DNA of 64,000 nucleotides. Source: an uncultured Thermoleophilia bacterium (GTDB lineage Bacteria > Actinomycetota > Thermoleophilia > UBA2241). The notes beneath the pieces are model-generated. The model was given only the letters and a program-made list of their open reading frames with translations, was not told the DNA's origin and ran no database searches. The stretch spans positions 350,009-414,008 of the forward strand of contig CAVPCT010000002.1 in NCBI GenBank assembly GCA_963702475.1, given 5' to 3'. This document shows positions 6,620-25,566 of the stretch, one piece after another; within the stretch, counting starts at the first letter, position 1, and each line of letters begins with the position of its first letter. A program made the translations under genes and the position numbers.

Positions 6620-9208
6620 GTGAAGCAGGCCGTACGGCTCACGAACCTCACCACCGGCGGTCCGGTGCACGTCGACGTGCGCGACGGCAGGATCCTGCGC
6701 ATGGTCCCCCTTGAGCTGGACGAGAGCGACGGGCCGTCGTGGAGCATCACGGCGAGGGGGCGCACGTTCACGCCTCCCCGCCGCACCACGCTCTCACCGT
6801 TCACCGTCGCTCACCGCTCCACCATCTACTCTCCCCGGCGCATCCTCACGCCGCTCAAGCGAGTTGACTTCGACCCCGCGGGCCAGCGCAACACGCACAA
6901 CCGCGGCAGTTCAGGTTACGAGCCCATCTCGTGGGACGAGGCCCTGGACCTCACCGCCGGCGAGATGACGCGCCTCAGGCGCGAGCACGGCCCGGCCGCC
7001 ATGCTGACCTCGCCCGGCTCCCACCACCTGTGGGGGACCCACGGCTACCGCACCAGCGCCTACTACCGCTTCATGGACCTCGTCGGGTTCACGTACGGAG
7101 AGCACAACCCGGACAGCTGGGAGGGCTGGCACTGGGGCGGCATGCACATGTGGGGCTTCAGCTGGCGCCTCGGCATCCCCGAGCAGTACGACCTCCTCGA
7201 GGACGCGCTGCAGCACACCGAGCTGCTCGTCTTCTGGTCTTCCGACCCTGAGAGCACCGGCGGCGGCATCTACACGGCCTTTGAGAGCACGCCCAGGCGG
7301 TACTGGTTCAAGGAGCTGGGCGTGAAGATGGTCTTCATCGACCCGTACTTCAACCACACGGCCGAGCTCTTCGGCGACAAGTGGTTCGCGCCGCGGCCGG
7401 GCACCGACGTGGCGATGGGGCTGGCGATCGCTTCCACGTGGCTCTCCGAGGGCCTCTACGACGAGGAGTACGTGGTTACGCGCACCGTCGGCTTCGACGA
7501 GTGGAAGGACTACGTGCTCGGCAGGACCGACAACGTGCCCAAGACGCCGGAGTGGGCCGAGGGGGAGTGCGGCATCCCGGCGCGCCAGATCCGCGCCCTG
7601 GCGCGCGAGTGGGGCACGAAGAGGACCATGCTGGCCGCCGGCGGCAAGGGCGGGTTCGGCGGCGCCTGTCGCTCGGCCACCGGCAACGAGTGGGCGCGCA
7701 CCATGATCGCCCTCGCGGCCATGCAGGGCTTGGGCAAGCCGGGCGTCAACATCTGGTCGACGACGCAGGGCGTACCCTGCGACACCGGCTTCTGGTTCCC
7801 CGGCTACAACGAGGGCGGCATCTCGGCCGACGCCAACACCCTGAGCGGCTTCCGTCTGGCCAATCGTCTCTGGCCGGACGGAGGCCCGTGCGGCAACCCG
7901 CACCACTCCACCGAGGGCCAGACTGTCAGCCGTCTCCTCATCCCCGAGGCCATGAGGGGCCAGAGCCTCGAGTGGCGGGGCAAGGGCTTCTGCGGCTCCT
8001 CCATCGAGTCGCAGTTCCAGAAGTACGAGTACCCCGCCCCCGGCTACGACCCGTGCCGTATGTACTACAGGTACGGCGGGTCCTTCATCGGCACCATGAC
8101 CGAGACCAACCGCTACGTCCGAGCCTACCGCGAGGGCGACGTCGAGTTCGTGGTCAACCAGTCGATCTGGTTCGAGGGCGAGGCGCGCTTCGCCGACGTC
8201 ATCCTCCCGGCGTGCACCAACTTCGAGCGCTGGGACATCGGGGAGTGGGCGGCGCCCACCGGCGCCGGGGCGTCGTCCACCGACGCCTGCAACCACCGCC
8301 TCATCGTCTTCCAGCAGAAGTGCATCGAGCCGCTCGGCGAGTCGAAGCCGGACTACGAGATCTTCGCCCTCCTCGCCGGGCGCCTCGGCCTCGGCCACCT
8401 GTACACCCAGGGCCTCACCGACCTGGACTGGGTCAAGCGGCTGTTCCTCGCCAGCGACCTGCCGCAGCGGATCTCCTGGGACGACTTCGCGCGCAAGGGC
8501 TACTACGTGGTGCCCGTGCCTCCGGAAAGGAAGCGCACCCCGGCGCTGCGCTGGTTCGCGGAAGACCGCGAGCGGGACACGCCGGACCTGGGGCCCAGAC
8601 CGTGGGAGACCGATCGCCTCAAGGGCCTGCAGACGGCGTCGGGCAGGATCGAGTTCGTCGCTTCCAGCCTCCGGCGCTTCGAGCGCTCCGGGGCCGTCGA
8701 CCCCGAACGGCCCGCGCTGGGGCCGCAGTACATCCCCAGCTGGGAGGGCCACCGCACGGCGGAGCTCGTGGCCCGGTACCCGCTGCAACTCATCAGCCCG
8801 CACCCGCGCTTCTCGTTCCACACCATGGGCGACGGCAAGGGCTCGTGGACCGACGACGTCGCGGACCACCGCGTGCTCGTCGACGGCCACCACTACTGGA
8901 TCCTTCGCCTGAACAGCGCCGACGCGCGGGCGCGCGGCGTCGCCGACGGCGACCTCATCCGGGCCTTCAACGACCGCGGCGAGGTCATCCTCGCCGCCCA
9001 GGTCACGGAGCGCGTGGGCCCCGGCACCGTGCACTGCTACGAGTCGGTCGCCGACTATCTCCCGCTGGGAGAGCCGGGCCACTCGCCGGACGCCGCCGGC
9101 TGCATCAACATCCTCACGCCCAAGCGGTTTGTCACCCCGACCTCGACCGGCATGGCGCCCAACTCCTGCCTCATCCAGGTGGAGCGGTGGGAGCCGGCAC
9201 CGGTCTGA
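6620..9208 (+). CDS. Mo-bisMGD oxidoreductase, pyrogallol hydroxytransferase large-subunit (AthL) family, paralog 1
   Basis: GTG start after GAGGAG; N-terminus VRLTNLTTGGPV, SHHLWG, HNPDSWEGWHWGGMHMWGFSWRLG (Ser Mo ligand), FPGYNEGG, SPHPRFSFHT; no Tat signal and no N-terminal Fe-S Cys motif. Confidence 0.93.
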   Translation: MKQAVRLTNLTTGGPVHVDVRDGRILRMVPLELDESDGPSWSITARGRTFTPPRRTTLSPFTVAHRSTIYSPRRILTPLKRVDFDPAGQRNTHNRGSSGYEPISWDEALDLTAGEMTRLRREHGPAAMLTSPGSHHLWGTHGYRTSAYYRFMDLVGFTYGEHNPDSWEGWHWGGMHMWGFSWRLGIPEQYDLLEDALQHTELLVFWSSDPESTGGGIYTAFESTPRRYWFKELGVKMVFIDPYFNHTAELFGDKWFAPRPGTDVAMGLAIASTWLSEGLYDEEYVVTRTVGFDEWKDYVLGRTDNVPKTPEWAEGECGIPARQIRALAREWGTKRTMLAAGGKGGFGGACRSATGNEWARTMIALAAMQGLGKPGVNIWSTTQGVPCDTGFWFPGYNEGGISADANTLSGFRLANRLWPDGGPCGNPHHSTEGQTVSRLLIPEAMRGQSLEWRGKGFCGSSIESQFQKYEYPAPGYDPCRMYYRYGGSFIGTMTETNRYVRAYREGDVEFVVNQSIWFEGEARFADVILPACTNFERWDIGEWAAPTGAGASSTDACNHRLIVFQQKCIEPLGESKPDYEIFALLAGRLGLGHLYTQGLTDLDWVKRLFLASDLPQRISWDDFARKGYYVVPVPPERKRTPALRWFAEDRERDTPDLGPRPWETDRLKGLQTASGRIEFVASSLRRFERSGAVDPERPALGPQYIPSWEGHRTAELVARYPLQLISPHPRFSFHTMGDGKGSWTDDVADHRVLVDGHHYWILRLNSADARARGVADGDLIRAFNDRGEVILAAQVTERVGPGTVHCYESVADYLPLGEPGHSPDAAGCINILTPKRFVTPTSTGMAPNSCLIQVERWEPAPV

Positions 9209-9247
9209 GTCCCTCAGTCCCACACCCGACCAGGAAGAGCCACGACC

Positions 9248-10063
9248 ATGGATCCCATCATCACCGCCTCGCTCACCGGCCCGGCCGCCACCAAGAAGGA
9301 CAACCCGGCGATCCCCGGGACGCCGGAGGAGATCGCGCGGAGCGCCGGGGAGGCCTACGACGCCGGCGCCGCCGTCATCCACATCCACCTGCGCGACAAC
9401 GACGACTTCACGACCGACCTCGAGGTGGCGCGGCGCACCGTGGAGCTGGTGCGCGAGCAGTGCCCGGGGATCGTTCAGCTCTCCACCGGGGGTGGGTTCG
9501 AGTACGAGGACCGCATGCGCATCGTCGAGGCGAGACCGGCGATGGCCACCCTGAACCCGGGCACCATGACGATCGGCGACCACGAGTTCCGCAACCCGCC
9601 CAGGCAGATGTACAAGCTCGCCGAGCGCATGCTCGAACTGGGCATCAAGGCCGAGGTGGAGATCTACGACACCGGCCACCTCGGCCTCGCCCTGGACCTG
9701 CTCAAGAAAGGGCTTCTCACCGAGCCGCTGCAGGTCTCGTTCGTGATGGGCGTCAAGGGCGGCATGCCGGCCGACCCGCGCCTGCTCGGCTACCTCGTCA
9801 ACGAGCTCCCGGCCGGCACCAGCTGGCAGGTGATCGCCATCGCGAAGGCCAACCTGCCGCTCACCACCATCGGCCTGGCCATGGGCGGCAACGCTCGCAC
9901 CGGCCTTGAGGACACGCTCTACATCAGGCCGAAGGAGCTCGCCTCGTCCAACGCCCAGCTCGTCGAGGCGCTGGTGAACGTGGCGCGCTCGCAGCACCTG
10001 GAGCCCGCGGGAGTCGAGGAGGTCATCGACCGCCTCAAGCTCAACCGCGACCTGATCGGGTGA
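9248..10063 (+). CDS. Beta-keto acid cleavage enzyme (BKACE/DUF849, Kce family)
   Basis: IITASLTG, AGAAVIHIHLRD (Zn HxH), STGG, EIYDTGH, RTGLED. Confidence 0.92.
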   Translation: MDPIITASLTGPAATKKDNPAIPGTPEEIARSAGEAYDAGAAVIHIHLRDNDDFTTDLEVARRTVELVREQCPGIVQLSTGGGFEYEDRMRIVEARPAMATLNPGTMTIGDHEFRNPPRQMYKLAERMLELGIKAEVEIYDTGHLGLALDLLKKGLLTEPLQVSFVMGVKGGMPADPRLLGYLVNELPAGTSWQVIAIAKANLPLTTIGLAMGGNARTGLEDTLYIRPKELASSNAQLVEALVNVARSQHLEPAGVEEVIDRLKLNRDLIG

Positions 10064-10095
10064 CGGAGCAAACCGAGGACCTGGGGGAGGCCGAG

Positions 10096-10945
10096 ATGGC
10101 GGAGCAAGACTACGTGCACATGCCGTCGCTGGAGGAGTACTCGAAGCGGTTCGAGCGCTTCTTCAAGTTCACGCGGTCCGACGACGGCATCCTCGAGGTG
10201 CGGATGCACACATGCGACGGTCCGGTGCGCTGGAGCTACCAGATGCACCACGCCATCTCGGAGCTCTGGACGGCCGTCGGGCACGACGTCAAGAACGAAG
10301 TGCTCATCTTCACGTCCACCGGCGACCAGTGGATCAACGAGGTGGACGCTTCGTCCTTCAAGGATGTCGAGCAGTCCGACGACGACGACCAGCGTTTCAA
10401 CGTCCAGATCTACGACACCCTCAAGGTCGTCGAGAACTTCGTCAACGACATCGAGATCCCGACGATCTGCGCCGTCAACGGCCGCGGCATCCACTGGGAG
10501 ATGGCGATGATGAGCGACATCACGCTCTGCACGCCGGACTTCATCCTGCAGGACGACCACTTCGTGATGAAGGGCGGCCACGTGCCCGGCGACGGCATGA
10601 CGATGGCCTTGCAGCAGGTCCTCGGCATCAAGCGCGGCAACTACATGAGCTACACCAACGCGGGCATCGACGCCGAGACCTGCCTCAAGCTCGGCGCGGT
10701 CAACGAGATCGTCGAGCGCGAGCGCATCGTCGAGCGCGCCTGGGAGCTGGCGCGCATGATCATGAAGACCAACCGCTCCACTCGCCGCCTCACCCACCAC
10801 GTCGCCGTGCGGCCGTGGCGCGAACTGGTGGAGCAGAACCTGCGCCAGCACGTGTACGCGGAGATGTACTCGTTCAACCTGGTCAAGTCGTCCCACGACT
10901 TCGACTCAGATCGCCTACTGCGACGACAAGATGGCGGAGATGTGA
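10096..10945 (+). CDS. Crotonase-superfamily beta-diketone hydrolase (6-oxocamphor hydrolase-like), paralog 1; frameshift near the 3' end
   Basis: EVRMHT..W, AVNGRGIHWE, QDDHF, VPGDG and YAE match the OCH pattern; corrected end HDF...IAYCDDKMAEM-stop. Confidence 0.85.
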
Positions 10946-10966
10946 GGAACGGAAGGAGACCTGACC

Positions 10967-11822: not shown

Positions 11823-11973
11823 GCGGCGTGCCTGCGGACCGCCGCTCCACGCCTCACCTGCGGTGGGAATCGAGCACGGCGGCGAAGACCGTGAGGCCGG
11901 GACCCCACCCTGAGGGGGTCCCGGCCGCCGTCCGCCGGGACCAGCCACGACACTCCCTGGATAGAGGTGGCAG

Positions 11974-12672
11974 ATGAGCGGCGCGATCGAGATCATCGAG
12001 AAGGCCCGGAGCGCTGGACGGACCGTCCTCACGGAGGCGGAGTCCAAACAGCTCCTCGCCGATCTGGGCATCCGGACCACGGAGATGCGGCTGGCGGCCA
12101 CCCGCGAGGAGGCCGTGGCCGCCGGTCGCCTGATCGGCTATCCCTGCGTGCTCAAGGTGTCGTCGCCGGACATCACGCACAAGAGCGACGCCGGCGGGGT
12201 GAAGGTGGCGCTGGCCGACGAGGAACAGTTGGCCGAGGCCTGGGACGACATCATGGCGTCGTGCCGGGCGAAGTACCCCGACGCCGTGATCGAGGGCGTC
12301 AGCGTGCAGAACATGGCGCCGCAGGGGCTCGAGGTCATCGTCGGCATGGCGACCGACCCTCAGTTCGGCCCCGTCCTCATGTTCGGCCTGGGCGGCGTGT
12401 GGGTCGAGGTGCTCAAGGACGTCAGCTTCAAGATCGTCCCCCTGACGAGGGACGACGCGCGCAACGCCATCAGAGAGACCATCGCCTCGAGGCTCCTCGA
12501 GGGGTTTCGCGGCTCGGATCCGGTGGACACGGCCGCCCTCGAGGACATCCTGCTGCGCGTCTCGGACTTCGTGGCGGCCACGCCGGAAGTGAGGGAGATG
12601 GACATCAACCCCATCTTCGCGTACCCGCACGGCGCTATGGCCGTCGACGCCCGCGTCATCCTGGGGGAGTGA
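11974..12672 (+). CDS. ADP-forming acetate/acyl-CoA ligase beta subunit (ATP-grasp)
   Basis: LTEAESKQLL, HKSDAGGV, DPQFGPVLMFGLGG, EMDINP, AVDAR. Confidence 0.92.
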   Translation: MSGAIEIIEKARSAGRTVLTEAESKQLLADLGIRTTEMRLAATREEAVAAGRLIGYPCVLKVSSPDITHKSDAGGVKVALADEEQLAEAWDDIMASCRAKYPDAVIEGVSVQNMAPQGLEVIVGMATDPQFGPVLMFGLGGVWVEVLKDVSFKIVPLTRDDARNAIRETIASRLLEGFRGSDPVDTAALEDILLRVSDFVAATPEVREMDINPIFAYPHGAMAVDARVILGE

Positions 12673-12677
12673 GAGCC

Positions 12678-14078
12678 ATGTCATCGCAGACCGTCGAACA
12701 GCTGGCGCACATCTGCAACGCCGAGTCGGTGGCGCTCGTCGGCGCCAGCGACAAGGAGGGCAGCTTCGGACGCCTCTTCCTCGAGGGCCTCAGGGACGCC
12801 GGCTGCCGCAGGATCTACCCGGTCAACCCCAAGCGCGAGGAGATCCTCGGCATCACCGCCTACCCGAGCATCAGCGCCGTGCCGGACGAGATCGACCTGG
12901 CCATCCTCCTCACCCCGACCGGCGTCGCGCTGGACCTGGTCAAGGAGTGCGTCGCCAACCGGGTGAAGGGCGCCGTGGTGTTCGCCTCCGGCTTCGGTGA
13001 GCTCGGCGCGGAGGGCAAGGAGCTCGAGCGCGAGATCGGCCGCGTCGGCAGGGAGGGCGGCACGCGCGTCGATCGGCCCGAACTGCATCGGCCTCTTCAA
13101 CCCCAGGGCGGGCGTCATCACCTACCCGCAGGTGCTGATGAAGGGCATCCCCAGGGAGCCCGGCTCGGTCGGCGGCTTCTCGCAGAGCGGCTCGTTCGTC
13201 GACTATCTCGTGTGGTTCCTGGCCGAGAAGGGCCTGCGCTTCAGCACCATCGTGAGCTGCGGCAACGAGTGCGACCTGGCCGCCGAGGACTACCTGGAGT
13301 ACTTCGGGCAGGACGAGCAGACGAAGACGATCGTCGCCTACATGGAGGGCGTCAAGGACGGCCGCCGCTTCTTCGAGGTGGCTCGGGACGTCGGGCCGCC
13401 GGAAGCCGATCATCCTGTGGAAGGGCGGGCATGAGCGAGCACGGCGCCCGGGCCGCGGCGTCACACACCGGCGCGCTGGCCGGGTCCGCCGAGCATCTGG
13501 CGCGCGATGTTCAGGCAGACGGGCATCATCGACGTCACCAGCGTGGCGGAGGTCGTCGACTGCGCCGTGGCGTTCCACGCACCTGCCGCTGCCCAAAGGG
13601 CCGCAGAGTGGCGCGTCATCGGCGGGCAGGGCGGGACCGGCGTGGGGACGGCGGACAACTGCTACGCGCTCGGGCTGGAGCTGCCGCGCCTGCTCGGAGC
13701 AGCACGGTCGCCCGCCTGCGCGAGGTGCTGCCGCCGGTCGGCACGTCGGTCGGCAACCCGACCGACACCGGCGTGGCCTCGCTGCTCGACCCGGGCCTGT
13801 ACGAGAAGGCCATCGAGATCGTCGCCGACGACGAGGGCATCGACATGATCCTCGTCATCTCGACGCCCGTGCCGGAGTGCCTCGACGCACGTGGCCGCGG
13901 CCGCCAAGGCGATCGACAAGCCGCTGGCGGTCTCCGTGTACGCCCTGCCCGAGTCGGAGCCGGAGATCTACGCGTCGCTGGGCGCCAGGGCGTGGCCGCG
14001 TACCCGGACCCGAAGCGCGCGGCCTACGTGCTCGCGCGCATGGCCGAGTACGCGAGGTTCCGTGAGAGCTCGAAGTAG
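12678..14078 (+). CDS. ADP-forming acetate/acyl-CoA ligase alpha subunit (CoA-binding); several frameshifts
   Basis: SVALVGAS, IYPVNPK, GPNCIG, SQSG, GNECDL, AAASHTGALAGS (phospho-His motif), GNPTD across frames. Confidence 0.88.
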   Translation: MSSQTVEQLAHICNAESVALVGASDKEGSFGRLFLEGLRDAGCRRIYPVNPKREEILGITAYPSISAVPDEIDLAILLTPTGVALDLVKECVANRVKGAVVFASGFGELGAEGKELEREIGRVGREGGTRVDRPELHRPLQPQGGRHHLPAGADEGHPQGARLGRRLLAERLVRRLSRVVPGREGPALQHHRELRQRVRPGRRGLPGVLRAGRADEDDRRLHGGRQGRPPLLRGGSGRRAAGSRSSCGRAGMSEHGARAAASHTGALAGSAEHLARDVQADGHHRRHQRGGGRRLRRGVPRTCRCPKGRRVARHRRAGRDRRGDGGQLLRARAGAAAPARSSTVARLREVLPPVGTSVGNPTDTGVASLLDPGLYEKAIEIVADDEGIDMILVISTPVPECLDARGRGRQGDRQAAGGLRVRPARVGAGDLRVAGRQGVAAYPDPKRAAYVLARMAEYARFRESSK

Positions 14079-14194
14079 CACCGCTCGGAGGCGGTGCGCC
14101 CGCTGCGGGGCGCCGCCGGCCGGCGCCCCGTCCGTCCCGACGACGGGACGGTTGGAGCGGTCGTCGCCCCAAGAAGATAGGCAGCGGGATGGTG

Positions 14195-14250: not shown

Positions 14251-14293
14251 TCTAGTAGGCCTGTCGCTAGTTCCAGGGGGGTGTCGAAGCCTC

Positions 14294-14415: not shown

Positions 14416-15461
14416 ATGATCATCGACGCCAACATGCACTGGCTCCCCGAGGACCTGTTCACCGAACATCGAGCTGCGTGACGCGTTCCTCGCCTGCGTC
14501 CCCAAGGAGGAGGGCGAGCACGCCTACGTCACGCCGATGCCCGGCACCGACCTCGAGCAGATCGTGATCGCCAAGCCCGAGGGTCACGAGAACCTGAACT
14601 ACGCCGAGAACCAGTACGACCCGGCGCTGCGCGTCAAGGACATGGACGGCGCCGGCGTCGACCTCGCCGTGCTGCGTATCCCCGTGTTCCAGAGCTGGCT
14701 GCCGCTCGACCTGTGCACGCAGGTCAACGACCGGCTCGCCGCCCACGTGGCCGACTACCCGGAGCGCGTGCGCGCGCTGGCCGTGGCTCCGCCCGACGGC
14801 ACCCCCGAGTGCCTGGCCGAGGTGGAGCGCGCCCTCGCCCTGCCCGGCTTCGTCGGCGTGCAGATGGCGGCCCACTACGGCAGCGATAGGAGCGGACTAC
14901 CTCGACCACCCCCGCTTCCGCAGCTACTTCAAGGCGCTCGACGCCCTCGGCGTCCCGGTGGTCGTGCACCACACGCCGCTGCCGGTCGAGTGGGCGAGCC
15001 TCGTGACCTACACCAACATGCGCCGCCAGTACGGGCGCTGCGTCGACCAGGGCACGGCCGTCGGCCGCGAGATCTTCAGCGACCTCTTCGAGGAGTGCCC
15101 CAACCTGCGGCTCATCCACTCCATGCTCGGCGGCGGCTTCTTCGCCTACGCCAACATGCTGGCGCCGCGCAGCAAGAAGTCCAACGAGGAGCTGGAGCGG
15201 TTCGACCCGGCGGCCGGCGTGCGCGAGCGCCTCGAGACCAACATCTACTTCGACACGTCCGGCGCCGCCCAGTGGGGCAAGGACCAGCTCGAGTGCGCCG
15301 TCAAGGTGTTCGGCGCCGACCACATCCTGTACGGCAGCTCGTATCCCGTGCGCCGCGAGTGGTTCGCCCAGGGCATCGACTTCGTCAAGGCCCTGGACAT
15401 CCCGCAGGAGAGCAAGGACCTCATCCTCGCCGGCAACGCACAGCGGATGTTCGACCTCTGA
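14416..15461 (+). CDS. Amidohydrolase_2 family protein with atypical metal motifs; frameshifts near 14470 and 14890
   Basis: IIDANMHW, DMDGAGVDLAVL, VNDRLA, VVVHH, IHSMLGGG, IYFDT, FGADHILYGSSYP, ILAGNAQRMF. Confidence 0.85.
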
Positions 15462-15531: not shown

Positions 15532-16686
15532 GTGAGTCATCAGTTGGGGATCCCCAAGGCAGCGCTTGATGCGCTGATTCAATTGGTGGACTACGACGCG
15601 CAGGTCAAGCCGGGCATGGAGGTCCTCATCGGGGCCCACCTCGACGGCGCCTACGGCAGTGAGAACCTGGTGGATCCGGTGGTCGTCAGCTGGGTCCAGG
15701 CCATGGTCGCTTCGCGCGGCGCCAATTGCTCGGTCCTCTGGATCGACGAGATCATGAAGAAGCACGAGTGGCGCGTGCCGCCCATCCTCAAGGGCGCCAT
15801 CACCGACGCCGATCTGTTCATCAACTTCTCTCTCGATCTGGCCATCGAGGAGAACGCGGAGTTCCGGCAGTACATCGAGAAGACGAAGACCTGGTACGTG
15901 CGCATGTTCCCCGTCACCACGGCCCTGCTGATGACCGATTGGGCGCGGACGCCGCATGAGCTCGTGGTCATGGTCCGCCACGTCAGCTCCGATCCGTTCA
16001 TGAACCACATGGCCAAGTTCGTCATGAGCGACACCAACGGCACGGAGCTCGAAGGCAACATCCTCGATCCGGTGAAGCGCGAGGGTATCCCCGGCATGCC
16101 CTACAACTCCTGGCGCAGGGACGCCAGCCACTACATCCCGTGGCCTGAGTGGGTCCACCCGCCGGTCAACTGCAAGAACGTCAACGGCGTCCTGTTCTTC
16201 GACTGCATGCTGCCCTACTGGGCGCGCTACATGGGCATCGCCCCGGCCTGGCAGGACCCGGTCCGCGTGGATGTCGTCGACAACAAGATGGTCAAGATCT
16301 CCGGCGGCAAGGAAGCCGACGCGATCAACCGCGCCCTGAAGGACCTGGAGACCAAGGTCGGCGACGGCATCTGGAAGTTCGACACCTTCCACTTCGGCAT
16401 CCACCCGAACGCGAGCGTCACGCACGACCAGTGCCCGAACGACATCTACAGGCGGATCATCGAGCACTCGCACCCCTCCAACATGCATTGGCACCTCGGT
16501 TCGGCGCCGGCCAACGAGAACTACAACTTCTATCCTCACGTCACTGCCGACATCCGCAACTGCACCCTCAAGATCGCCGACGAGCTCGTGTGGGACAACG
16601 GCTACATGCTGTGCCAGCAGGACCCGAGAGTGCTCGAGGTCGCTGCCAAGTACCCCGATCTCCCCGGCATTCCCGAGCGGGTCTAG
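15532..16686 (+). CDS. Aminopeptidase T (M29)/NicX-fold metalloprotein of unknown function
   Basis: VKPGMEVLI, DTNGTELEG, NGVLFFD, PVRVDVVDNKMVKISGG, FHFGIHPNA, HWHLGS, HVTADIRNCTL; GTG start after AAGGAG. Confidence 0.65.
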   Translation: MSHQLGIPKAALDALIQLVDYDAQVKPGMEVLIGAHLDGAYGSENLVDPVVVSWVQAMVASRGANCSVLWIDEIMKKHEWRVPPILKGAITDADLFINFSLDLAIEENAEFRQYIEKTKTWYVRMFPVTTALLMTDWARTPHELVVMVRHVSSDPFMNHMAKFVMSDTNGTELEGNILDPVKREGIPGMPYNSWRRDASHYIPWPEWVHPPVNCKNVNGVLFFDCMLPYWARYMGIAPAWQDPVRVDVVDNKMVKISGGKEADAINRALKDLETKVGDGIWKFDTFHFGIHPNASVTHDQCPNDIYRRIIEHSHPSNMHWHLGSAPANENYNFYPHVTADIRNCTLKIADELVWDNGYMLCQQDPRVLEVAAKYPDLPGIPERV

Positions 16687-16716
16687 GCGATCGAGCGACA
16701 GACAGGAGAAGAAGGT

Positions 16717-17902
16717 ATGAGCAGGCTGATCGCCTACATCGGGCGCAACCACGTGGGCGGCTTCAAGGGCGGCGGCATCGACATCCTCGAGATCAGCGAG
16801 GACGGCAGCAGCATCACCCCGCTGCCCGGCGGCGCCGTGGACATGCCGAAGCGGGCGGGCTACCTCGCCTACGCGCCCAAGGCGGGCGTCCTCTACTCGG
16901 TCGACGAGCGGAAGACCGACGGACGCGGCCCCAAGCAGCCGGCCTCGTCCGTGATGGCGTTCAAGGTGGACCAGGAGACCGGCGCGCTGACCTTCCTGAA
17001 CCAGCAGCCCACCGTGGGGGCCATGCCGGCCTCCATCACGGTGGACGAGGACAAGAGGCTCCTCTGGACCGCCAACCACGGCTTCTTCGACCACGTGGTC
17101 AAGGCGGTCCAGCTCGCCGACGGCACGTGGGTCGAGAAGTTCGAGTACGACGACTCGACGGTGGTCCAGTACGGCCTGAACGACGACGGCTCCATCGGCC
17201 CGGTCCAGGACGTGCACGTGCTGACCGGCTACGGCACCGACCCGAACGACTCGCCGCAGGGCGGCGGCCACGCGCAGGCCAGCCCTCACGCGCACATCGT
17301 CGTGATCGACCCGTCGGGCAAGTTCATGGTGGCGTGCGAGAAGGCCGGGCGAGCGCATCTACGTCTACCGCATCGGCGGCAAGAGACTGGAGCTCGCCTC
17401 CGTCTACCAGTGCCCGGCGGGCACCGGCCCCCGGCACGTCGCGTTCCACAAGGACACGGGCCGCATGTTCATGACGTGCGAGTTCTCGTCCGAGCTCTGG
17501 TCCTTCGACTTCGACGGCGAGACCGGCGTGCTGAGCTTCATCGACAAGCAGTCGACGCTCGACGGGTTCACGGGCCGCAACGAGACGGCCACCGTGCAGG
17601 TGCACCCGAGCGGCCGCTTCGTGTACATGAACAACCGCGGCCAGGACGACGTCGTCTGGTTCACCGTCTCCGACGACGGCCATCTCACGAAGTCCGGACG
17701 GGTCGAGCTGAGCCGGTGCGAGGATCCCAAGGACGCGACGCGGGCGATGACGCTCTCGCCGTCCGGCGCGTTCCTGCTCGTCCCGGACCGCCCGGCGGAC
17801 ATCGTCCGGGCGTACGCAGTGGACCCGGACGACGGGAGCCTGAAGGCCGTGGCCGAAGTCCCGGTCGAGAACCCGGTCTTCATCCAGTTCGTCGAGCTCT
17901 GA
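16717..17902 (+). CDS. Lactonase family 7-bladed beta-propeller (6-phosphogluconolactonase/carboxymuconate cyclase-like); frameshift near 17350
   Basis: TGALTFLNQQPT, TANHG, QASPHAH, DPSGKF, GPRHVAFH, HPSGRFVYMNNRGQDD. Confidence 0.85.
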
Positions 17903-17915
17903 GCCGGTCTGACCA

Positions 17916-17964
17916 CGTCGCTCCCGGCCCCCATGGGGGTGCCCCGTGGGGGCCGGGAGCGACG
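17916..17964 (+). terminator. Long inverted repeat between the lactonase and AthL paralog 2
   Basis: CGTCGCTCCCGGCCCCCATGGGG...CCCCGTGGGGGCCGGGAGCGACG. Confidence 0.5.
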
Positions 17965-18172
17965 GCCGGACCGGACCTCTCCTCCGCCGCCGGCGGAGGG
18001 CGGGCACGCGCCGATCAGAGGCCCCGGAGGCTTCGCAGCCACCAGGAGCCTCTGATGGGCGGCATCTCCGCCCTGGTCCCGGCAATCGGGTGAGGGATGG
18101 ATCCGAACCAGTGAGCACGCGACTTCACACGACGAACGACAGCCTGCGAGGTGCACGAGAGGTGGTTGTCCT

Positions 18173-20714
18173 ATGAGCGAGGAGCAGGTCTTCACCCAGT
18201 GCACGGTCGGCGGGCCGGTGCGCGTGTACGTCGAGGACGGCGTCATCAAGCGGATGCGCCCCATCATCTTCGATGAGGACGACGCCGCGTCCTGGACGAT
18301 CGAGGCGCGCGGCCGGAAGTTCACGCCGCCGCGCAAGACCACCCTGCAGAGCTACGAGGTGCCCGAGCGGACGCGCGTCTACACGAACCGCATCCAGTAC
18401 CCGCTGAAGCGCAAGAACTTCGACCCGAACGGCGAGCGGCATCCCGAGCTGCGCGGCAAGGACGAGTACGTGCGCATCTCCTGGGACGAGGCCCTCGACC
18501 TCGTGGCCGGTGAGATCACCCGCATCCGCGAGACCCACGGTCCCGCGGCCATCACCGCCATGACCCCGTCCCACCAGAACTGGGGCTTCCTGCACTACAA
18601 GCTCGGCCCGCTCGGGCGCTTCTTCAACATCCTCGGCTACAGCCAGTGCCTGGACAATCCCGACAGCTGGGAGGGCTGGCACTGGGGCGCCACCCACGCC
18701 TGGGGCTACTGGTGGCGCCTGGGCCACTGCGAGCAGTCCGAGCTCCTGCAGGACGCGCTCAAGCACACCGAGCAGGTCATCTTCTGGTCGGTGGACCCCA
18801 ACAGCACCTCCTACATGTACAGCGGCCAGGAGAACCTCATCTGGCGCCACTGGATGAAGGAGCTCGGCATCCAGTTCGTGGTCATCGACCCGTACGACAA
18901 CTGCACCGCGAGCACCATGGGCGACAAGTGGATCGCGCCGCGCCCGGGCACCGACGCGGCGCTGGCCCAGGCGATCGGCTACGTGTGGCTCACCGAGGAC
19001 ACCTACGACCACTTCTTCGTCGAGAACCGCACCTACGGCTTCGACGAGTGGAAGCAGTACATCCTGGGCGAGGGCGAGGACGGCACGCCCAAGACGCCGG
19101 AGTGGGCCGCCGCCATCTGCGACGTGCCGGCCCACACCATCAGGGCGCTGGCGCGCGAGTGGGCGGCCAAGAAGACCATGCTGGCCGTGGCCAGCATCTT
19201 CGGCGCCACCGGCGCCTGCCGCCAGGCCTACGCCACCGAGTGGACCCGGCTGTGCATCTACCTCATGTCCATGCAGGGCTTCGGCAAGCCGGGCGTCAAC
19301 TTCTGGGGCGGCACCGGCAAGGGCGCGCCGCTGGACATGGGCTTCCACATGTTCGGCTACTCGGACAACGGCTGGGACGCCTTCGGCACCGTGGCCGAGA
19401 AGGCCTACTTCCCCGAGGGCAACACGGTCACCCAGAAGACCTACCGCCACCTGCTGCCGGACATCGTCATGGACCCGCCGGTGAGCTGGATCGGCGAGGG
19501 CTTCTGCGGCCAGAGCATCGAGCAGCAGTTCCGCCCCTTCACCTGCCCGGAGGAGGGGCCGGACGGCGCCCCCATCAAGATGATCCACCGCCAGGGCGGG
19601 TCGTTCATCAGCACGATGAGCGAGACCAACAAGTGGGTGCGGATGTACCAGCACCCCAACCTCGAGTTCGTCGTGATGCAGGACTGCCACTGGTCCAGCG
19701 AGACCAGGTTCGGCGACGTCATCCTGCCGGTGAGCACCAACTTCGAGCACTCCGACCTCTCGGAGTGGGGAGCCGCCGGCGGCTACGGCTTCAACGACTT
19801 CAACAGCAACCACCGCATCTGCATCTACCAGCACAAGTGCATCGAGCCGCTCTGGGAGTCCAAGCCCGACTACGAGATCTACACGCTCCTCGCGGCGCGG
19901 CTGGGCTTCGAGGAGGAGTACACGGAGGGCAACAGCATCGAGGACTGGAACCGCATCGTCTTCGACAAGTCCGACCTGCCCAAGTACGTCACCTACGAGG
20001 AGTTCAAGGAGAAGGGCTACTTCGTGGTGCCGGCCAGGCCGGACGACGAGGAGCCGGTCGTCTCCTTCCGCTGGTTCTACGAGGGCACGGACGCGGCGGT
20101 GCCGTCGGAGATGAGGACCCCGCCCGGCCCGCCGCGACAACGGCTCCGACCTGGCCACCCCGAGCGGCAAGGTGGAGTTCGTCTCGCAGACCCTCACGGC
20201 GTTCGACCCGGACGACGAGGAACGGCCGCCCATGGCGCGCTACATCCCGAGCTGGGAGGGCTACGACACCGAGGGCCTGGTCGAGAAGTGGCCGCTGCAG
20301 ATGGTCTCGCCGCACCCGCGGTTCTCGTACCACACGCACAACGACAACAAGAGCCTCTGGCTGGACGACATCCCGCAGCACCGGGTCAAGATCGACGGCT
20401 ACGCCTACTGGCCGGTGCGCATCAACCCGGCGGACGCGGCGGCTCGCGGCATCAAGCACCACGACCTGGTGAAGGTCTTCAACGACCGCGGCGCCGTCAT
20501 CTGCGCGGCGATCGTGACCGAGCGGATGCGGCCCGGCGTCGTCCACTCCTACGAGGCGGGCGCGAAGTACGACCCGCTGGAGCCCGGCAAGCCCGGCAGC
20601 CCCGACCGGGGCGGCTGCGTGAACCTGCTGACGCCCTCGAGGATGGTCTCCAGGAACGCGCCGGGCGAGGCGCAGAACTCCTGCCTGGTCGAGGTGGCCA
20701 GGTGGGACGGCTAG
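18173..20714 (+). CDS. AthL-family Mo-bisMGD large subunit, paralog 2; frameshift near 20135
   Basis: CTVGGPVRVYVEDG, WTIEARGRKFTPPRKT, DNPDSWEGWHWG, SPHPRFSYHT, DRGGCVNLLTP. Confidence 0.92.
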
Positions 20715-20735
20715 GCGAGGAGGTGAGAGAACTTC

Positions 20736-23274
20736 ATGGCAGAGCAGGAATTCATCAACTGCTGCATCGGCGGCATGGTCAAGGTCACCGTCGAGGACGG
20801 CGTGATCAAGCGCATGCGCCCTCTGCGTCTGACCGAAGAGGACGGCGGCCGCTGGACGCATCGAGGCCAAGGGCAAGCGGTTCACCGACCCGCGCAAGAC
20901 CACGATCAACCCGTTCAACATCGCCGAGCGCACGCGCGTGTACGCGGAGAACCGCATCAAGTACCCGATGAAGCGCAAGAACTTCGACCCCGAACGGCGA
21001 GCGGCACCCCGAGCTGCGCGGCAAGGACGAGTACGTGCGCATCACCTGGGACGAGGCGCTGGACCTGGTCACCAGCGAGATCACGCGCGTGCGCGAGACC
21101 TACGGCCCGGCGGCCATCACCGCCTTCGTCTCGCTCGCACCACAACTACGGGCTGCTGTACTACAAGATGGGCCCCATGCCGCGCTTCTACAACATCCTC
21201 GGCTACACCCAGCTCCTGGACAATCCGGACAGCTGGGAGGGCTGGCACTGGGGCAGCATGCACACCTGGGGCTGGTACTGGCGGTTCGGCCAGTGCGACT
21301 GCTTCGACATGCTGGCCGAGGCGCTCAAGAACACCGAGCAGCTCATCTACTGGTCGGTGGACCCCAACACCTCGGCCGGCGGCTACGGCGGCCAGGAGAC
21401 CGTGATCTGGCGCGAGTGGCTGCGCGAGCTGGGCGTCGGCGCCATCTTCATCGACCCCTACTGCAACGCGACCGCCGCGCACATGGCCGACAAGTGGCTC
21501 GCGCCGCGGCCCGGCACCGACGCGGCGCTGGCGCAGGCGATCGCCTGGCAGTGGATCGTGGACGACACCTACGACCACTGGTTCATCGAGAACCGCACCG
21601 TCTACTTCGACGAGTGGAAGGACTACATCCTCGGCAAGGTCGACGGCGTGCCCAAGACGCCCGAGTGGGCGGCCCCCATCTGCGACATCCCGGCGCACAC
21701 CATCAAGGCGGTGGCCAGGCAGTGGATGTGCAAGAAGACGATGCTGGCCACCGGGTCCATGTACGGCACCGCCGGGGCCTGCCGCAACTCGTTCGCCACC
21801 GAGTGGGCCAGCCTCATGATCCACCTGGCCGCGATGATGGGCATCGGCAAGGAGGGCGTGAACATCTGGGGCGGAGCCGCTCACGGCGCTCCGCTGGACA
21901 TGCGCTTCAAGAGCGCCGGCTACTCCGACTGCGGCTGGGACGTCTTCGGCCTGGTGGCCGAGCAGCCCACCTTCCCCGACCGCAACTCGGTCACGCAGAA
22001 GGTGTACCGGCTCAGCCTGCCGGAGGCGATCCTCGACGGCCACATCGAGTGGTACGGCGAGGGCTTCTGCGTGCAGTACCCCGAGCAGCAGTTCAAGCCC
22101 ATGCAGTACCCCGAGCCCGGCCCGAACGGCGCCGAGATCAAGATGATCCACCGCCACGGCGGCTCGTTCATCAGCACCATGAGCGACACCAGCAAGTGGG
22201 TGCGCATGTACCAGAGCCCCAAGCTGGAGTTCGTGGTGATGCAGGACTGCCACTGGCAGAGCGAGACGAAGTTCGGCGACGTGATCCTGCCGGCCTCCAC
22301 CAACTTCGAGCACAACGACATCTCGGAGTGGGCGCAGCCGGGCGGCTACGGCAACGGCAACGTCAACTGCAACCACCGCATCCTGATGTACCAGCAGAAG
22401 TGCATCGAGCCGCTGTGGGAGTCCAAGCCGGACTACCAGATCTACTGCGAGCTGGCCGAGCGCCTGGGCTTCCTCGAGGAGTACACCGAGGGCAACTCGG
22501 AAGAGGACTGGATCAAGAAGGTCTTCGCGATCACCGACCTGCCCAAGCACCTCACCTACGAGGAGTTCAAGGAGAAGGGCTACTTCGTGGTGCCGTCGGT
22601 GCCCGACGACTACGAGCCCACGATCTCCAACCAGTGGTACTACGAGGGACGCCCGGTCGACACGCCGGACAGGTTCAACCCGCTGGCCGACACCGAGCAC
22701 GCCACCGAGATGGCCACCCCCTCGGGCAAGATCGAGTTCAAGCGGACCATCCTCGAGAAGTACTTCCCCGACGACGAGGAGCGGCCGATCATGCCGCGCT
22801 ACATCCCGCTGTACGAGGGGCACGAGACCACCGGGCCTCGTGGACAAGTACCCGCTCATCATCATGACGCCGCACGCCAAGTTCTCGTACCACACGCACC
22901 AGGACAACAAGATCCAGTGGCTCAACGACATCAGGCAGCACCGGATCATCAAGGACGGCTACCCGTACTGGCCGATGCGCCTGAACCCGGGTGACGCCGA
23001 GGAGCGGGGCATCAAGGACGGCGACATCGTCGAGGTCTACAACGACCGCGCCAGGGTGCTCGGCGTGGCCCTGGTGACCGAGCGCTGCCGCCCGGGCCTG
23101 GTGCACTCCTACCAGGCCGGCGCCAAGTACGACCCGCTCGAGCCCGGCAACGCCGACAGCGTGGACAGAGGCGGGTGCGTCAACCTGCTGTCGCCGTCTC
23201 GCTACACCAGCAAGAACGCCTGCGGCGAGGCCAACATGTCCTATCTCGTCGAAGTCCGCAAGTGGGAGGCCTGA
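20736..23274 (+). CDS. AthL-family Mo-bisMGD large subunit, paralog 3; several frameshifts
   Basis: CCIGGMVKVTVEDG, DNPDSWEGWHWG, TPHAKFSYHT, DRGGCVNLLSP; closely similar to paralog 2. Confidence 0.9.
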
Positions 23275-23276
23275 CA

Positions 23277-24107
23277 ATGACCCGGTATGGGATGGTGATC
23301 GACGTCGACAGGTGCGTGGGGTGCTACAACTGCTTCCTCACCTGCCGCGACGAGTACGCCGGCAACGCGTACCCCGGCTACTCCGCCCCTCAGCCGATGA
23401 GCGGCATGGACTGGATGAAGGTCAACGAGATCGAGCGCGGGCAGTACCCGCACGTCAAGGTCGACCACGTGCCCGTGACCTGCGCGCACTGCGACTCCGC
23501 CGTCTGCGTCACCCTGGACCAGACCGGGGCCATCTCACCGGCGCGCGGACGGCATCGTGCTGATCGACCCGGAGAAGGCCAAGGGCAACAAGGGCCTGGT
23601 GGCGCTGTGCCCGTATCGCCAGATCGAGTGGAACGAGGAGCTCCAGCTGGCGCAGAAGTGCACCCTGTGCGCGCACCTGCTGGACGCGGGCGACCCGGAG
23701 CCCCGCTGCGTGGAGTCCTGCCCGAGCGGGGCGATCGATCTTCGGCGACCTCGACGACCCCAGCAGCAAGGTCGCCGCGCTGGTGGCCTCGGGGACCGAG
23801 GTCGATTCACCCCGAGTACGCGATGGGCGAGAAGGTCACGTACAAGGGCCTGCCCAAGAAGTTCGTCGCCGGCACCGTCGTCTACGGCGACGTGGACGAG
23901 GTCGCCGCCGGGATCGACGTGGTGCTGACCGGCGACGGCGTGAGCGAGACCATGAAGACCAACGGCTTCGGCGACTTCGAGTTCGACGGCCTCGCGGACG
24001 CCGCCACCTACACGGTCACCGTCGAGGCGCCGGGCTACGCGCCCGCCACCCTGAAGGCCACGACGCGCAGGGACCTCTACCTGGGCGAGATCGTCCTGCA
24101 GAAGTAG
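23277..24107 (+). CDS. Transhydroxylase-type Fe-S small subunit (AthS/RehS-like) with C-terminal beta-sandwich domain; internal frameshifts
   Basis: MVIDVDRCVGCYNCFLTC, CAHCDSAVC, DGIVLIDPEKAKG, CPY, QKCTLCAHLLD, PRCVESCP, TNGFGDFEFDGL. Confidence 0.9.
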   Translation: MTRYGMVIDVDRCVGCYNCFLTCRDEYAGNAYPGYSAPQPMSGMDWMKVNEIERGQYPHVKVDHVPVTCAHCDSAVCVTLDQTGAISPARGRHRADRPGEGQGQQGPGGAVPVSPDRVERGAPAGAEVHPVRAPAGRGRPGAPLRGVLPERGDRSSATSTTPAARSPRWWPRGPRSIHPEYAMGEKVTYKGLPKKFVAGTVVYGDVDEVAAGIDVVLTGDGVSETMKTNGFGDFEFDGLADAATYTVTVEAPGYAPATLKATTRRDLYLGEIVLQK

Positions 24108-25564: not shown

Positions 25565-25566
25565 CC

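Follow-up and report, generated by a model that had tools for sequence, protein, structure and literature searches.

The 64-kb window, i.e. the whole stretch of DNA that was analysed, comes from an uncultured actinobacterium and carries two separate catabolic operons that probably act on hydroxylated aromatics. Its assembly is noisy. The old paralogs alpha2 and alpha3 would form separate 1:1 complexes with one shared beta subunit, a reading to which a probability of about 0.5 is given. Three AthL-family alpha genes (alpha1, 6620-9208; alpha2, 18173-20714; alpha3, 20736-23274) and one AthS-like beta gene (23277-24107) were located, all on one strand within 17.5 kb. No other beta was found within the 64 kb. 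The alphas do not form a single unit: alpha1 is in its own operon and alpha2-alpha3-beta in another.

Operon A (approximately 4.4-14 kb) joins the beta-less alpha1 to phloroglucinol-pathway-type enzymes, namely an SDR, a 3HCDH-type dehydrogenase, a BKACE enzyme, beta-diketone-hydrolase-like crotonases and an ADP-forming CoA ligase. Its genes were as follows.

4437..5406, + strand: 3-hydroxyacyl-CoA-dehydrogenase-family gene (the family of TfD), split into two frames as assembled (two overlapping frame pieces matching Pfam 3HCDH_N and 3HCDH)
5451..6206, + strand: short-chain dehydrogenase (SDR), candidate phloroglucinol reductase at family level only (Pfam adh_short_C2, 5.9e-62; generic SDR models only in NCBIfam)
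6249..6590, + strand: small cupin_2 protein (Pfam Cupin_2, 7.8e-10)
6620..9208, + strand: alpha1, intact AthL-family molybdopterin subunit of 862 aa, no adjoining beta gene (4v4c_A, PF21423, PF00384, PF01568)
9248..10063, + strand: BKACE-family enzyme, candidate triacetate acetoacetate-lyase (Pfam BKACE, 1.1e-84; hits to NCBIfam Kce-type models stay under the cut-offs)
10060-10923 and 10971-11819, + strand: two crotonase-fold genes (Pfam ECH_1 on both)
11965..14078, + strand: genes of the ADP-forming acyl-CoA synthetase type, broken into several frame pieces (Pfam ATP-grasp_5, CoA_binding_2 and Succ_CoA_lig on separate pieces)

The gene after alpha1 (9248..10063) is a BKACE enzyme by Pfam and not a beta subunit. 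According to PMC10470551, phloroglucinol reductase (PGR) is an SDR and TAL is a BKACE member. Operon A has members of the families of PGR (SDR), TfD and TAL (BKACE) of the anaerobic Clostridium scatologenes phloroglucinol pathway. Unlike that pathway, it has two crotonase-fold genes in place of DPGC; no cyclase-family DPGC was found by Pfam among the 51 ORF pieces of the window, and cyclase-family genes occur elsewhere in the genome. The crotonase at 10060-10923 resembles CoA-independent beta-diketone hydrolases in sequence: its best PDB matches were beta-diketone hydrolase (2j5g, 4.6e-35) and 6-oxocamphor hydrolase (1o8u, 4.9e-34), compared with 5e-11 or weaker for enoyl-CoA hydratases.

Operon B (approximately 14.4-30.6 kb) runs in the order amidohydrolase_2, NicX-like protein, lactonase, alpha2, alpha3, beta, HMGCS/DUF35-thiolase, MarR and TRAP transporter. 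The orthologous operon of a relative (L011), in which all ORFs are intact, was used for comparison.

14441..15458, + strand: Amidohydrolase_2 gene (decarboxylase/hydrolase family) in two frames (Pfam Amidohydro_2 on two pieces; intact ortholog L011:7112-8164)
15532..16686, + strand: conserved 384-aa protein, predicted fold NicX/M29-like (structure prediction)
16717..17899, + strand: 7-bladed beta-propeller lactonase-family gene in two frames (Pfam Lactonase on two pieces; intact ortholog L011:9879-11078)
18173..20714, + strand: alpha2, AthL-family subunit, one extra base near 20134-20136 (ortholog L011:11213-13750, intact, 845 aa, 87% identical)
20736..23274, + strand: alpha3, AthL-family subunit, extra bases near 20857-59, 20993, 21132-34 and 22831-33 (intact ortholog L011:13756-16287)
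23277..24107, + strand: beta, AthS-like iron-sulfur subunit with C-terminal beta-barrel domain, three extra bases at ~23536, 23725-36 and 23803 (ortholog L011:16291-17121, intact, Fer4_11 and CarboxypepD_reg)
24114..25564, + strand: HMG-CoA-synthase-like protein fused to DUF35 (ChsH2 zinc-ribbon/OB), frame pieces (Pfam on pieces; HMG-CoA synthase models of Pfam and NCBIfam fall short of the cut-off with the intact ortholog L011:17129-18577)
25534..26753, + strand: thiolase of SCP-x/archaeal acetoacetyl-CoA thiolase type, frame pieces (Pfam Thiolase_N and Thiolase_C_1; ortholog L011:18581-19765, NCBIfam NF004810, 535.9 bits, cut-off 403)
26806..30624, + strand: MarR-type regulator and TRAP transporter (DctP, DctM), frame pieces (Pfam MarR_2, DctP and DctM; these genes stand upstream in the operon of L011)

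No Pfam or NCBIfam family was found for the 384-aa protein. Atlas NicX clusters scored 0.95, the AF2 model had a pLDDT of 79.5, and Foldseek returned NicX (7cn3_A; E 9.6e-19, TM 0.63/0.68). This protein adjoins the lactonase in at least 8 loci. The NicX-like protein and lactonase in Operon B are a poor fit to the classical phloroglucinol route.

The initial annotation had described three full-length AthL-family genes. Their coordinates and family were borne out by Pfam domains (AhtL-like_1st, Molybdopterin and Molydop_binding) and by matches to 4v4c_A, and 'full-length' failed for alpha2 and alpha3 as assembled. One break was present in alpha2, four in alpha3 and three in beta; alpha1 was intact. 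At face value this pattern would fit decay of alpha2, alpha3 and beta, with alpha1 alone functional. That explanation is very unlikely, as RNase E/G, Obg and DctM in the window, essential genes among them, are split likewise (32 frame-switch junctions across 64 kb), and break sites differ between the genome's two copies. A three-way alignment gave 8 private insertions of non-multiples of three in the window, 11 others in the second genomic copy and none in the relative. Read in the ortholog frame, dN/dS was 0.13 for alpha2, 0.08 for alpha3 and 0.25 for beta; all three are under purifying selection. At 7 of the 8 coding sites, independent short-read contigs (4 runs from 4 studies) left out one base no more than 3 bases away: at 20134 in alpha2 (2 of 4 runs), at 3 of 4 sites in alpha3 and at 3 of 3 in beta. 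Because housekeeping genes are split alike, the ortholog is intact, dN/dS is low and the short-read contigs are without the extra bases, the breaks look like assembly errors and not real lesions. The suspicion that two alphas might remain broken after polishing was thus not confirmed, as far as it could be tested by alignment, dN/dS and short-read contigs.

All three alphas and beta are of the same family as the pyrogallol-phloroglucinol transhydroxylase AthL/AthS (PgtL) of Pelobacter acidigallici (PDB 4v4c/4v4d/4v4e), a molybdenum enzyme acting on trihydroxybenzenes of plant origin. Alpha1 matched 4v4c_A with 1180 bits (E 0), and the intact alpha2 and alpha3 orthologs with 864 and 802 bits, respectively. 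The proposal that alpha1 is nearer to Pelobacter AthL than alpha2 and alpha3 stands. Genome-wide, the closest relative and near-ortholog of AthL is C4:267316-269892 (1715 bits), outside the window and with its own beta. The beta ortholog matched 4v4c_B (E 4.7e-62), and the window beta, like AthS, has aligned Cys motifs and a C-terminal barrel domain. Unlike AthL and AthS, for which the structure is solved and the genes are paired 1:1, alpha1 and alpha2 are without a beta gene of their own.

Inspection of residues agreed with the initial annotation in finding NPDSWEGWHWG in alpha1, alpha2 and alpha3 and no twin-arginine leader; an N-terminal Cys motif was also absent from all three. As in AthL, NPDSW with D174/S175, H144 and Y404 are kept and there is no export signal. 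Catalytic sites were judged from the residues of AthL. H144, Y152, D174, S175, Y404 and Y560 are all kept in alpha2 and alpha3, including the molybdenum-serine site, and, because this set is kept, both look catalytic. Unlike in AthL, R153 is replaced by Lys in both. Alpha1 retains H144, R153, D174, S175 and Y404, and its Y560 is replaced by Ala. The alpha2 and alpha3 clades have different residues at pocket positions 147, 151 and 401-402.

Resorcinol hydroxylase RhLS (Azoarcus anaerobius) and 3,5-dihydroxybenzoate hydroxylase DbhLS (Thauera aromatica AR-1) are two-subunit enzymes that pass electrons to an acceptor. Unlike for these, no acceptor module was seen in Operon B, and the likeness is by description, not sequence. 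A review (PMC10100899) places RhL and PgtL together among hydroxylating enzymes that are cytoplasmic and Ser-ligated.

Alpha2 and alpha3, previously taken for close tandem relatives, are 66% identical and fall into two old clades (alpha2, 12 rows, support 100; alpha3, 17 rows, support 95), each including Actinomycetota and Dehalococcoidia members. On this phylogeny they are old paralogs and not recent tandem copies. Alpha2 runs straight into alpha3-beta in 10 of 73 loci compared (L013, L014, L017, L018, L019, L020, L021, L023, L024 and L037), as well as in the window and the second copy; in L027 and L040 the two alphas are ~1 kb apart. Besides the window, at least 10 loci of Actinomycetota have the operon in which alpha2-alpha3-beta is followed by HMGCS/DUF35 and thiolase. 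Alpha3 is followed by beta in its tree rows, except at contig ends and in 2 rows. The alpha2 rows with beta next are L039 and L044 only, and both branch outside the Actinomycetota subclade. The gene order in L028 is alpha3-beta-alpha2-beta. Where alpha2 has its own beta, the beta tree places it in the alpha3-beta lineage in 3 of 5 loci (L039, L044 and L047) and in a different lineage in L016 and L033. The trees indicate an ancestral alpha-beta/alpha-beta pair that lost its first beta, the one after alpha2. In L043 (Dehalococcoidia), alpha2 is followed by neither beta nor alpha3, and the 728-aa protein in this position, a putative iron-sulfur flavoprotein, hints at another partner.

Across the whole genome, 15 alpha loci and 9 AthS-like beta loci were counted. 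The claim of a single beta therefore holds for the window only: 8 additional betas, a finding named beforehand as counting against the proposal, were found elsewhere, each beside an alpha of its own. Six of the 15 alphas have no beta directly downstream, and alphas outnumber betas in all 5 of the relatives checked. The alpha/beta imbalance is genuine and a usual feature of the lineage.

Sharing of a beta between interchangeable alphas had been proposed for all three. By comparison of loci this is supported for alpha2 and alpha3, but not for alpha1, which is 9 kb upstream, because alpha1 is in a separate conserved beta-less operon and its clade is accompanied by another beta lineage. Around alpha1 the arrangement is SDR-cupin-alpha1-BKACE with no beta; orthologs of 81-83% identity in 3 other genomes keep SDR-alpha1-BKACE, again without beta. 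The cupin was present upstream of the ortholog in L088 and was not detected upstream of those in L087 and L089. No beta was present within the 1.5 kb of flank examined in 17 of 20 alpha1-like loci. Those betas that do accompany the alpha1 clade in this genome (C4 and C3:568521 loci) differ in lineage from the window beta, and alpha and beta clades track each other. The shared strand, the 17.5-kb span and the lack of a second beta in the window would suit use of beta 23277-24107 by all three alphas, which is nevertheless improbable given these data and the eight further betas in the genome. Still less probable is a hetero-complex of alpha2, alpha3 and beta in which hydroxylation of a substrate on one alpha is coupled to dehydroxylation of another on the other alpha, with electrons passing via beta, so that the tetrahydroxybenzene co-substrate becomes unnecessary. 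The tight conserved gene order and the differing pocket residues are consistent with it. However, alpha2-beta occurs without alpha3 (L039, L044 and L047) and alpha3-beta without alpha2 (L015, L026 and L034), and Y404 and Y560 are kept in both, with no loss marking a specialised half-reaction; this part of the initial annotation found no support. We know of no DMSO reductase family enzyme with two alphas on a single beta.

A less likely reading than sharing is that beta serves alpha3 only and that alpha2, like alpha1 and the other orphans, works without an iron-sulfur subunit. The orphan alphas of this genome, the alpha excess in its relatives and the conserved alpha1 operon all favour this; beta-less alphas are common in the class, so beta may be something the alphas can do without and not a shared subunit. 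Transhydroxylation is redox-neutral in its net reaction and needs no electron transfer. After AthL, DMSO and TMAO reductases (1eu1, 7l5i and 4dmr among others) come next in the PDB for each of the three alphas. They are single-subunit enzymes working without an iron-sulfur subunit and so set a precedent, within this branch, for an enzyme with no beta. Unlike the window alphas, these act on S- and N-oxides and are without the AthL-type N-terminal domain PF21423. Against a stand-alone alpha2, it retains an alpha3-lineage beta in three loci and is translationally near alpha3-beta, and a literature search found no AthL-family enzyme described without a small subunit.

Sharing of one beta by alpha2 and alpha3 is supported because the two alphas are spaced by 21 bases in a conserved one-beta operon, because genes of the alpha3 clade retain a beta and most of those of the alpha2 clade do not, and because 3 of 5 of alpha2's own betas belong to the alpha3 lineage. 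From this we infer the sharing, and also the 1:1 stoichiometry: the remaining beta would form separate 1:1 complexes with alpha2 and with alpha3, as in AthL-AthS. The substrates of these candidate enzymes are guesses. Several hydroxyl shifts in one organism were reportedly described by Brune, Schnell and Schink in 1992. Pelobacter massiliensis, which converts hydroxyhydroquinone to phloroglucinol by sequential transhydroxylations for which we know of no genes, offers a possible reason for several alpha paralogs, by analogy only. With their different pockets, the two enzymes of Operon B may shift hydroxyl groups on tri- or tetrahydroxybenzenes, either one after the other or as alternatives.

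In genome coordinates the window is C2:350009-414008 of the source genome G000 (4.31 Mb in 9 contigs; completeness 93.78, contamination 6.49), with a G+C content of approximately 69%. All genes from approximately 4.4 to 32 kb lie on the plus strand, and the following are referred to below:

6620-9208, plus strand: alpha1, large subunit; a single open frame of 862 residues matched over its full length by 4v4c_A (1180 bits)
10060-10923 and 10971-11819, plus strand: crotonase-fold genes in the alpha1 operon
15532-16686, plus strand: conserved protein of 384 amino acids with no Pfam or NCBIfam family
18173-20714, plus strand: alpha2, large subunit with the same Pfam domains as alpha1; frame not open in the assembly
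20736-23274, plus strand: alpha3, large subunit with the same Pfam domains as alpha1; frame not open in the assembly
23277-24107, plus strand: beta, a genuine small-subunit gene, also broken in the assembly

The presence of three alphas and one beta within the window, as read in the initial annotation, was borne out by domain and PDB matches. The domains of AthL-type large subunits, which form the PgtL/RhL branch of the DMSO reductase family, are PF21423, Molybdopterin and Molydop_binding; all were found in alpha1 and were spread over the two pieces of alpha2. Because of the frame breaks, the PF21423 match of alpha3 was partial and under the cut-off (22.2 bits, compared with 63.5 bits for the intact ortholog). 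Beta comprises Fer4_11 and CarboxypepD_reg, i.e. the AthS-type ferredoxin-like part and the C-terminal beta-barrel domain. Its ortholog was aligned with 4v4c_B over residues 1-254, where the Cys motifs coincide, and the three frame pieces of the window beta carry the same motifs. The gene at 9248-10063, directly after alpha1, was considered as a second beta and rejected, since Pfam assigned it to BKACE. Large-subunit genes are not each accompanied by a small-subunit gene: after alpha1 comes BKACE, after alpha2 comes alpha3, and beta comes after alpha3 alone. Whereas AthLS of Pelobacter acidigallici, the solved heterodimer, pairs one large with one small subunit, alpha1 and alpha2 have no adjoining beta gene.

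Residue numbers are those of P. acidigallici AthL and were taken from the alignment of alpha1 with 4v4c_A. H144, Y152, D174 and S175 (NPDSW motif), and Y404 are present in alpha1, alpha2, alpha3 and their orthologs. We take S175 of the AthL NPDSW motif to be the Ser ligand to Mo, D174 to be the neighbouring Asp, H144 and Y404 to be further catalytic residues, and R153 and Y560 to be pocket residues of the Pelobacter enzyme. Position 153 is Arg in alpha1 and Lys in alpha2 and alpha3; position 560 is Ala in alpha1 and Tyr in alpha2 and alpha3. Positions 147, 151 and 401-402 distinguish alpha2 from alpha3. Neither a twin-arginine leader nor an N-terminal Fe-S Cys motif was seen on inspection of the N-termini of the alphas, which by their sequences appear cytoplasmic, as AthL-type subunits are. 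The catalytic set of H144, Y152, D174, S175 and Y404 is thereby complete in all three alphas, and beta is of the AthS type.

The genome contains 15 alpha loci (PF21423, 16 matches, two of them on alpha3), and tblastn was concordant. Searching with beta gave 9 loci with both the Fe-S part and the C-terminal domain, plus 4 further Fe-S proteins matching in the N-terminal part only. Contig C9 begins with a second copy of the locus; leaving it out lowers the totals to 13 alphas and 8 betas. The initial annotation had named betas elsewhere in the genome as a finding that would speak against it; 8 more were found, each directly 3' of an alpha, and its observation is partly confirmed. In six cases the gene directly after the alpha is not a beta: alpha1, alpha2 with its C9 copy, C3:573059, C9:108583 and C9:177860. 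By Pfam, two of the last three are situated among BKACE, SDR, 3HCDH and CoA-ligase genes. An alpha and a beta together comprise 1121-1138 residues. A promoter and terminator scan of 8000-27900 returned 1 promoter-like and 6 terminator-like sites, a yield not above that of shuffled sequences and uninformative on operon limits.

Further alphas were noted in the genome. Three genes (C3:557680-560073, C9:113999-116428 and C9:154236-156671) form a third, divergent clade with 33-37% identity to alpha1 and alpha2. H144, D174 and S175 are kept and Y152, R153, Y404 and the Y560 loop are missing; these proteins, each with its own beta from a separate beta lineage, probably catalyse a different reaction. 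Of all alphas in the genome, C4:267316-269892 and not alpha1 is nearest to Pelobacter AthL (1715 bits; approximately 85% identity on a rough reading of the alignment), and it has its own beta (pair at C4:266472-269892; minus strand, 4413-7893 of the fetched locus L106). So close a match is unexpected in an actinobacterial genome of 70% G+C, and the local dip to 64-66% G+C suggests gene transfer for this pair.

The reading frame changes once in alpha2, four times in alpha3 and three times in beta. Three of the alpha3 changes fall within its first 400 bases with a net return to the starting frame, and those of beta likewise restore the frame. Indispensable genes of the window, among them RNase E/G, Obg and the TRAP permease DctM, are split in the same way (10-1803, 2493-3776, 29166-30624 and elsewhere). 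A frame plot gave 32 overlapping frame-switch junctions in the 64 kb, including a few normal overlaps between genes. In the relative G021 (100% complete) all ORFs of the orthologous operon are intact, and DNA identity to the window operon is 83% over 8.6 kb. The second copy at the C9 start is 93.7% identical over 8.4 kb. A three-way alignment gave 8 private insertions that were not multiples of three in the window, 11 different ones in the C9 copy and 0 in the relative. Following the frame of the relative codon by codon, dN/dS between the window and C9 copies was 0.13 for alpha2, 0.08 for alpha3 and 0.25 for beta. Contigs from four public short-read runs of four studies were aligned to the locus at 90% likeness. 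One base was left out at most 3 bases from at least 7 of the 8 coding sites (20134, 20857-59, 21132-34, 22833, 23536-37, 23736 and 23804), and the contigs were also one base shorter at intergenic site 20724. Near 20993, no left-out base was seen among the matches listed. As these contigs represent related populations in other samples, they support the error reading without proving it.

On the evidence of the split housekeeping genes, the intact relative, the copy-specific insertions, the low dN/dS and the short-read contigs, the frame breaks are assembly errors. Alpha2, alpha3 and beta are under purifying selection. Their interpretation as pseudogenes, to which we give next to no weight, is rejected on the same evidence (insertions, split genes, dN/dS and short-read contigs). 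Given the frame-switch junctions and the split housekeeping and transport genes, any ORF-based annotation under-calls genes in the source genome. The second copy (C9:1-13057, locus L012; window 17618-30605) spans alpha2-alpha3-beta-HMGCS-thiolase-MarR-TRAP, starting at the contig edge. Identity is 94% in the alpha region and falls to 85-88% downstream, and the single-base insertions of this copy are its own. A true duplication and a co-binned strain are the two readings of this copy, the contamination estimate of the genome being 6.49.

Alpha1 and alpha2-alpha3-beta belong to two conserved operons, not one unit. Pfam placed SDR and cupin genes upstream of alpha1 and BKACE downstream, with a 3HCDH-family gene, the two crotonase-fold genes and an ADP-forming CoA ligase nearby. 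The closest orthologs of alpha1 (81-83% identity) were found in three genomes of another family (loci L087, L088 and L089). All three keep the order SDR-alpha1-BKACE and have no beta at the locus; the cupin was detected only in L088. With 1.5-kb flanks, beta lay directly downstream of alpha in 3 (L102, L104 and L105) of 20 alpha1-like loci, a set that includes the window's own, and two loci (L093 and L098) ran into a second alpha. In Clostridium scatologenes, the phloroglucinol-pathway enzymes PGR, TfD and TAL are members of the SDR, 3HCDH and BKACE families (PMC10470551), all three of which occur in the alpha1 operon. The full cluster (PGR, DPGC, TfD and TAL) is not present, as the window has no cyclase-family ring hydrolase: the cyclase family (DPGC) was absent from all 51 window pieces scanned with Pfam. 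Cyclase genes are located elsewhere in the genome (C3:580454 and C9:91337/92146). Because the window has no such DPGC, the crotonase-fold gene 10060-10923 may act on dihydrophloroglucinol as a non-orthologous ring hydrolase. It resembles CoA-independent beta-diketone hydrolases, and its PDB matches to 2j5g beta-diketone hydrolase (4.6e-35) and 1o8u 6-oxocamphor hydrolase (4.9e-34) were far better than those to enoyl-CoA hydratases.

The intact order in the relative is TRAP transporter, amidohydrolase_2, MarR, 384-aa protein, beta-propeller lactonase, alpha2, alpha3, beta, HMG-CoA-synthase-like/DUF35 fusion and thiolase. Genome contigs were scanned with the alpha3 of the relative as query, 73 loci were kept, and the operon proteins were mapped onto them. 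Alpha2 ran directly into alpha3-beta in 10 of the 73 loci, all from MAGs titled as Actinomycetota, as well as in the window and the C9 copy. Approximately 1 kb separated alpha2 from alpha3 in two Dehalococcoidia loci (L027 and L040), the gap in L027 being a crotonase-fold gene similar to window 10060-10923. Alpha2 was followed by beta in 5 loci (L039, L044, L047, L016 and L033) and lay at a contig edge in two; in L028 the order was alpha3-beta-alpha2-beta. In the Dehalococcoidia MAG locus L043, the alpha2 ortholog was followed by neither alpha3 nor beta but by a 728-aa protein (L043:10810-12996). From its sequence alone, we read this as an iron-sulfur flavoprotein whose N-terminus is NuoG-like (2Fe-2S/4Fe-4S) and which has a GltD-like part for NAD(P)H and flavin; it could serve alpha2 as an alternative redox partner.

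An alpha tree of 92 rows, RehL and DbhL not among them, was made using FastTree. In it, 12 rows make up the alpha2 clade (support 100) and 17 the alpha3 clade (support 95), and the two fall together in a clade of 31 rows (support 99). Alpha2 and alpha3 had been described in the initial annotation as close tandem relatives; they occupy separate clades, each with Actinomycetota and Dehalococcoidia members, which makes the duplication an old one and not a recent tandem event. Apart from contig ends and two rows, alpha3 rows are followed by beta. Alpha2 rows with beta next (L039 and L044) branch outside the Actinomycetota subclade having alpha2 then alpha3. In a quick-search beta tree of 71 rows, the betas after alpha2 in L039, L044 and L047 fell inside the lineage of betas after alpha3, and those in L016 and L033 in the lineage accompanying the third, divergent alpha clade. 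The simplest history would have two adjacent alpha-beta pairs from which the beta after alpha2 was lost, the remaining beta type having already been used with both alphas.

The 384-aa protein has many invariant His, Asp and Glu residues. A profile search against PDB sequences gave only a chance match (E 1.7). Its structural model (pLDDT 79.5) best matched 7cn3_A, the 2,5-dihydroxypyridine dioxygenase NicX (E 9.6e-19, TM 0.63/0.68, 14% identity), followed by M29 aminopeptidases, and the Atlas lead agreed with the NicX match. The predicted fold is closest to that of this ring-cleaving dioxygenase. AthL-like genes have the protein, the lactonase and the amidohydrolase as neighbours in Actinomycetota, a Desulfobacterales MAG (L041) and an Acidobacteriota MAG (L054); the association of the 384-aa protein was also seen in a Dehalococcoidaceae MAG. 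Desulfobacterales and Dehalococcoidaceae are mostly anaerobes. The NicX-like protein and its companions do not fit the classical phloroglucinol route, which limits what can be said of the products of alpha2 and alpha3.

This class has a much enlarged AthL family. Five near-complete relatives (G021, G056, G121, G110 and G068; 2.8-3.7 Mb) had 15-24 alpha matches per genome, with ratios of alpha to full-length beta matches of 15/12, 24/17, 20/15, 18/13 and 19/12-13; these are gene matches read from listings and not copy numbers. The class range including the source genome was 15-24 alpha versus 9-17 beta matches per genome. With a cut-off of E 1e-250, alpha1-like matches were present in 28 of 151 genomes of the class sample, and in 19 of 25 in one family. 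From the counts in relatives and the class sample, alpha excess is a feature of the lineage. Several tandem alpha-alpha pairs were also seen in the alpha1-like clade, e.g. G056:C1:124976/127658 and G121:C6:133714/136562. In each of 20 runs from 11 studies, between 6 and 41% of the sampled words of the locus were found. Most of these runs, which include the four aligned above, are metagenomes of wetland, soil or sediment, a hint at such a habitat; shares in RNA runs X15-X20 were 0.06-0.28.

For the alpha2-alpha3-beta operon, the reading that we favour, with a probability of about one half, is that alpha2 and alpha3 share the single beta. Each would bind it 1:1, like the solved heterodimer, giving two enzymes with different pockets that would shift hydroxyl groups on tri- or tetrahydroxybenzenes, in succession or on alternative substrates. 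One beta lineage occurs after both alpha2 and alpha3, and Pelobacter massiliensis reportedly performs sequential transhydroxylations within one organism. The main rival, which we hold possible but less probable, is that alpha2 needs no beta, as with alpha1 and other orphans. Orphan alphas are frequent, and the next-closest solved relatives are the DMSO and TMAO reductases, which are single-subunit enzymes.

The interpretation in the initial annotation, that interchangeable alphas are served by one beta, is partly supported: the comparison of loci speaks for it in alpha2 and alpha3, which have a beta lineage in common, but not in alpha1, which lies in a separate beta-less operon. Use of the window beta by alpha1 as well is unlikely, because alpha and beta lineages run in parallel. 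Slightly more doubtful still is the proposed hetero-complex of alpha2, alpha3 and beta as one particle, in which the Fe-S chain of beta would link two Mo sites; gene order is the sole point in its favour. That such a complex adds a hydroxyl on one alpha and removes it on the other, dispensing with the tetrahydroxybenzene co-substrate, is equally improbable. If true, two half-enzymes would together make up a self-contained transhydroxylase.

The transhydroxylase family is the gateway through which tannin- and lignin-derived trihydroxybenzenes enter the central metabolism of anaerobes and soil bacteria. To our knowledge, the Pelobacter enzyme is the only one solved, and the role of the Fe-S subunit in a redox-neutral reaction is unexplained. 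All parts described here belong to known families. It is their make-up that departs from the known systems, with beta-less alpha genes and with an HMGCS/DUF35-thiolase pair joined to the conserved alpha-alpha-beta operon. Our literature search found no description of either arrangement; earlier genome papers, in the parts available, merely count AthLS operons in Chloroflexi (PMC3971608, PMC4959651). The conserved alpha-alpha-beta operon, the conserved beta-less alphas and the alpha excess together constitute a natural experiment on beta. Beta is either exchangeable among related alphas or dispensable, and each answer would reveal its purpose.
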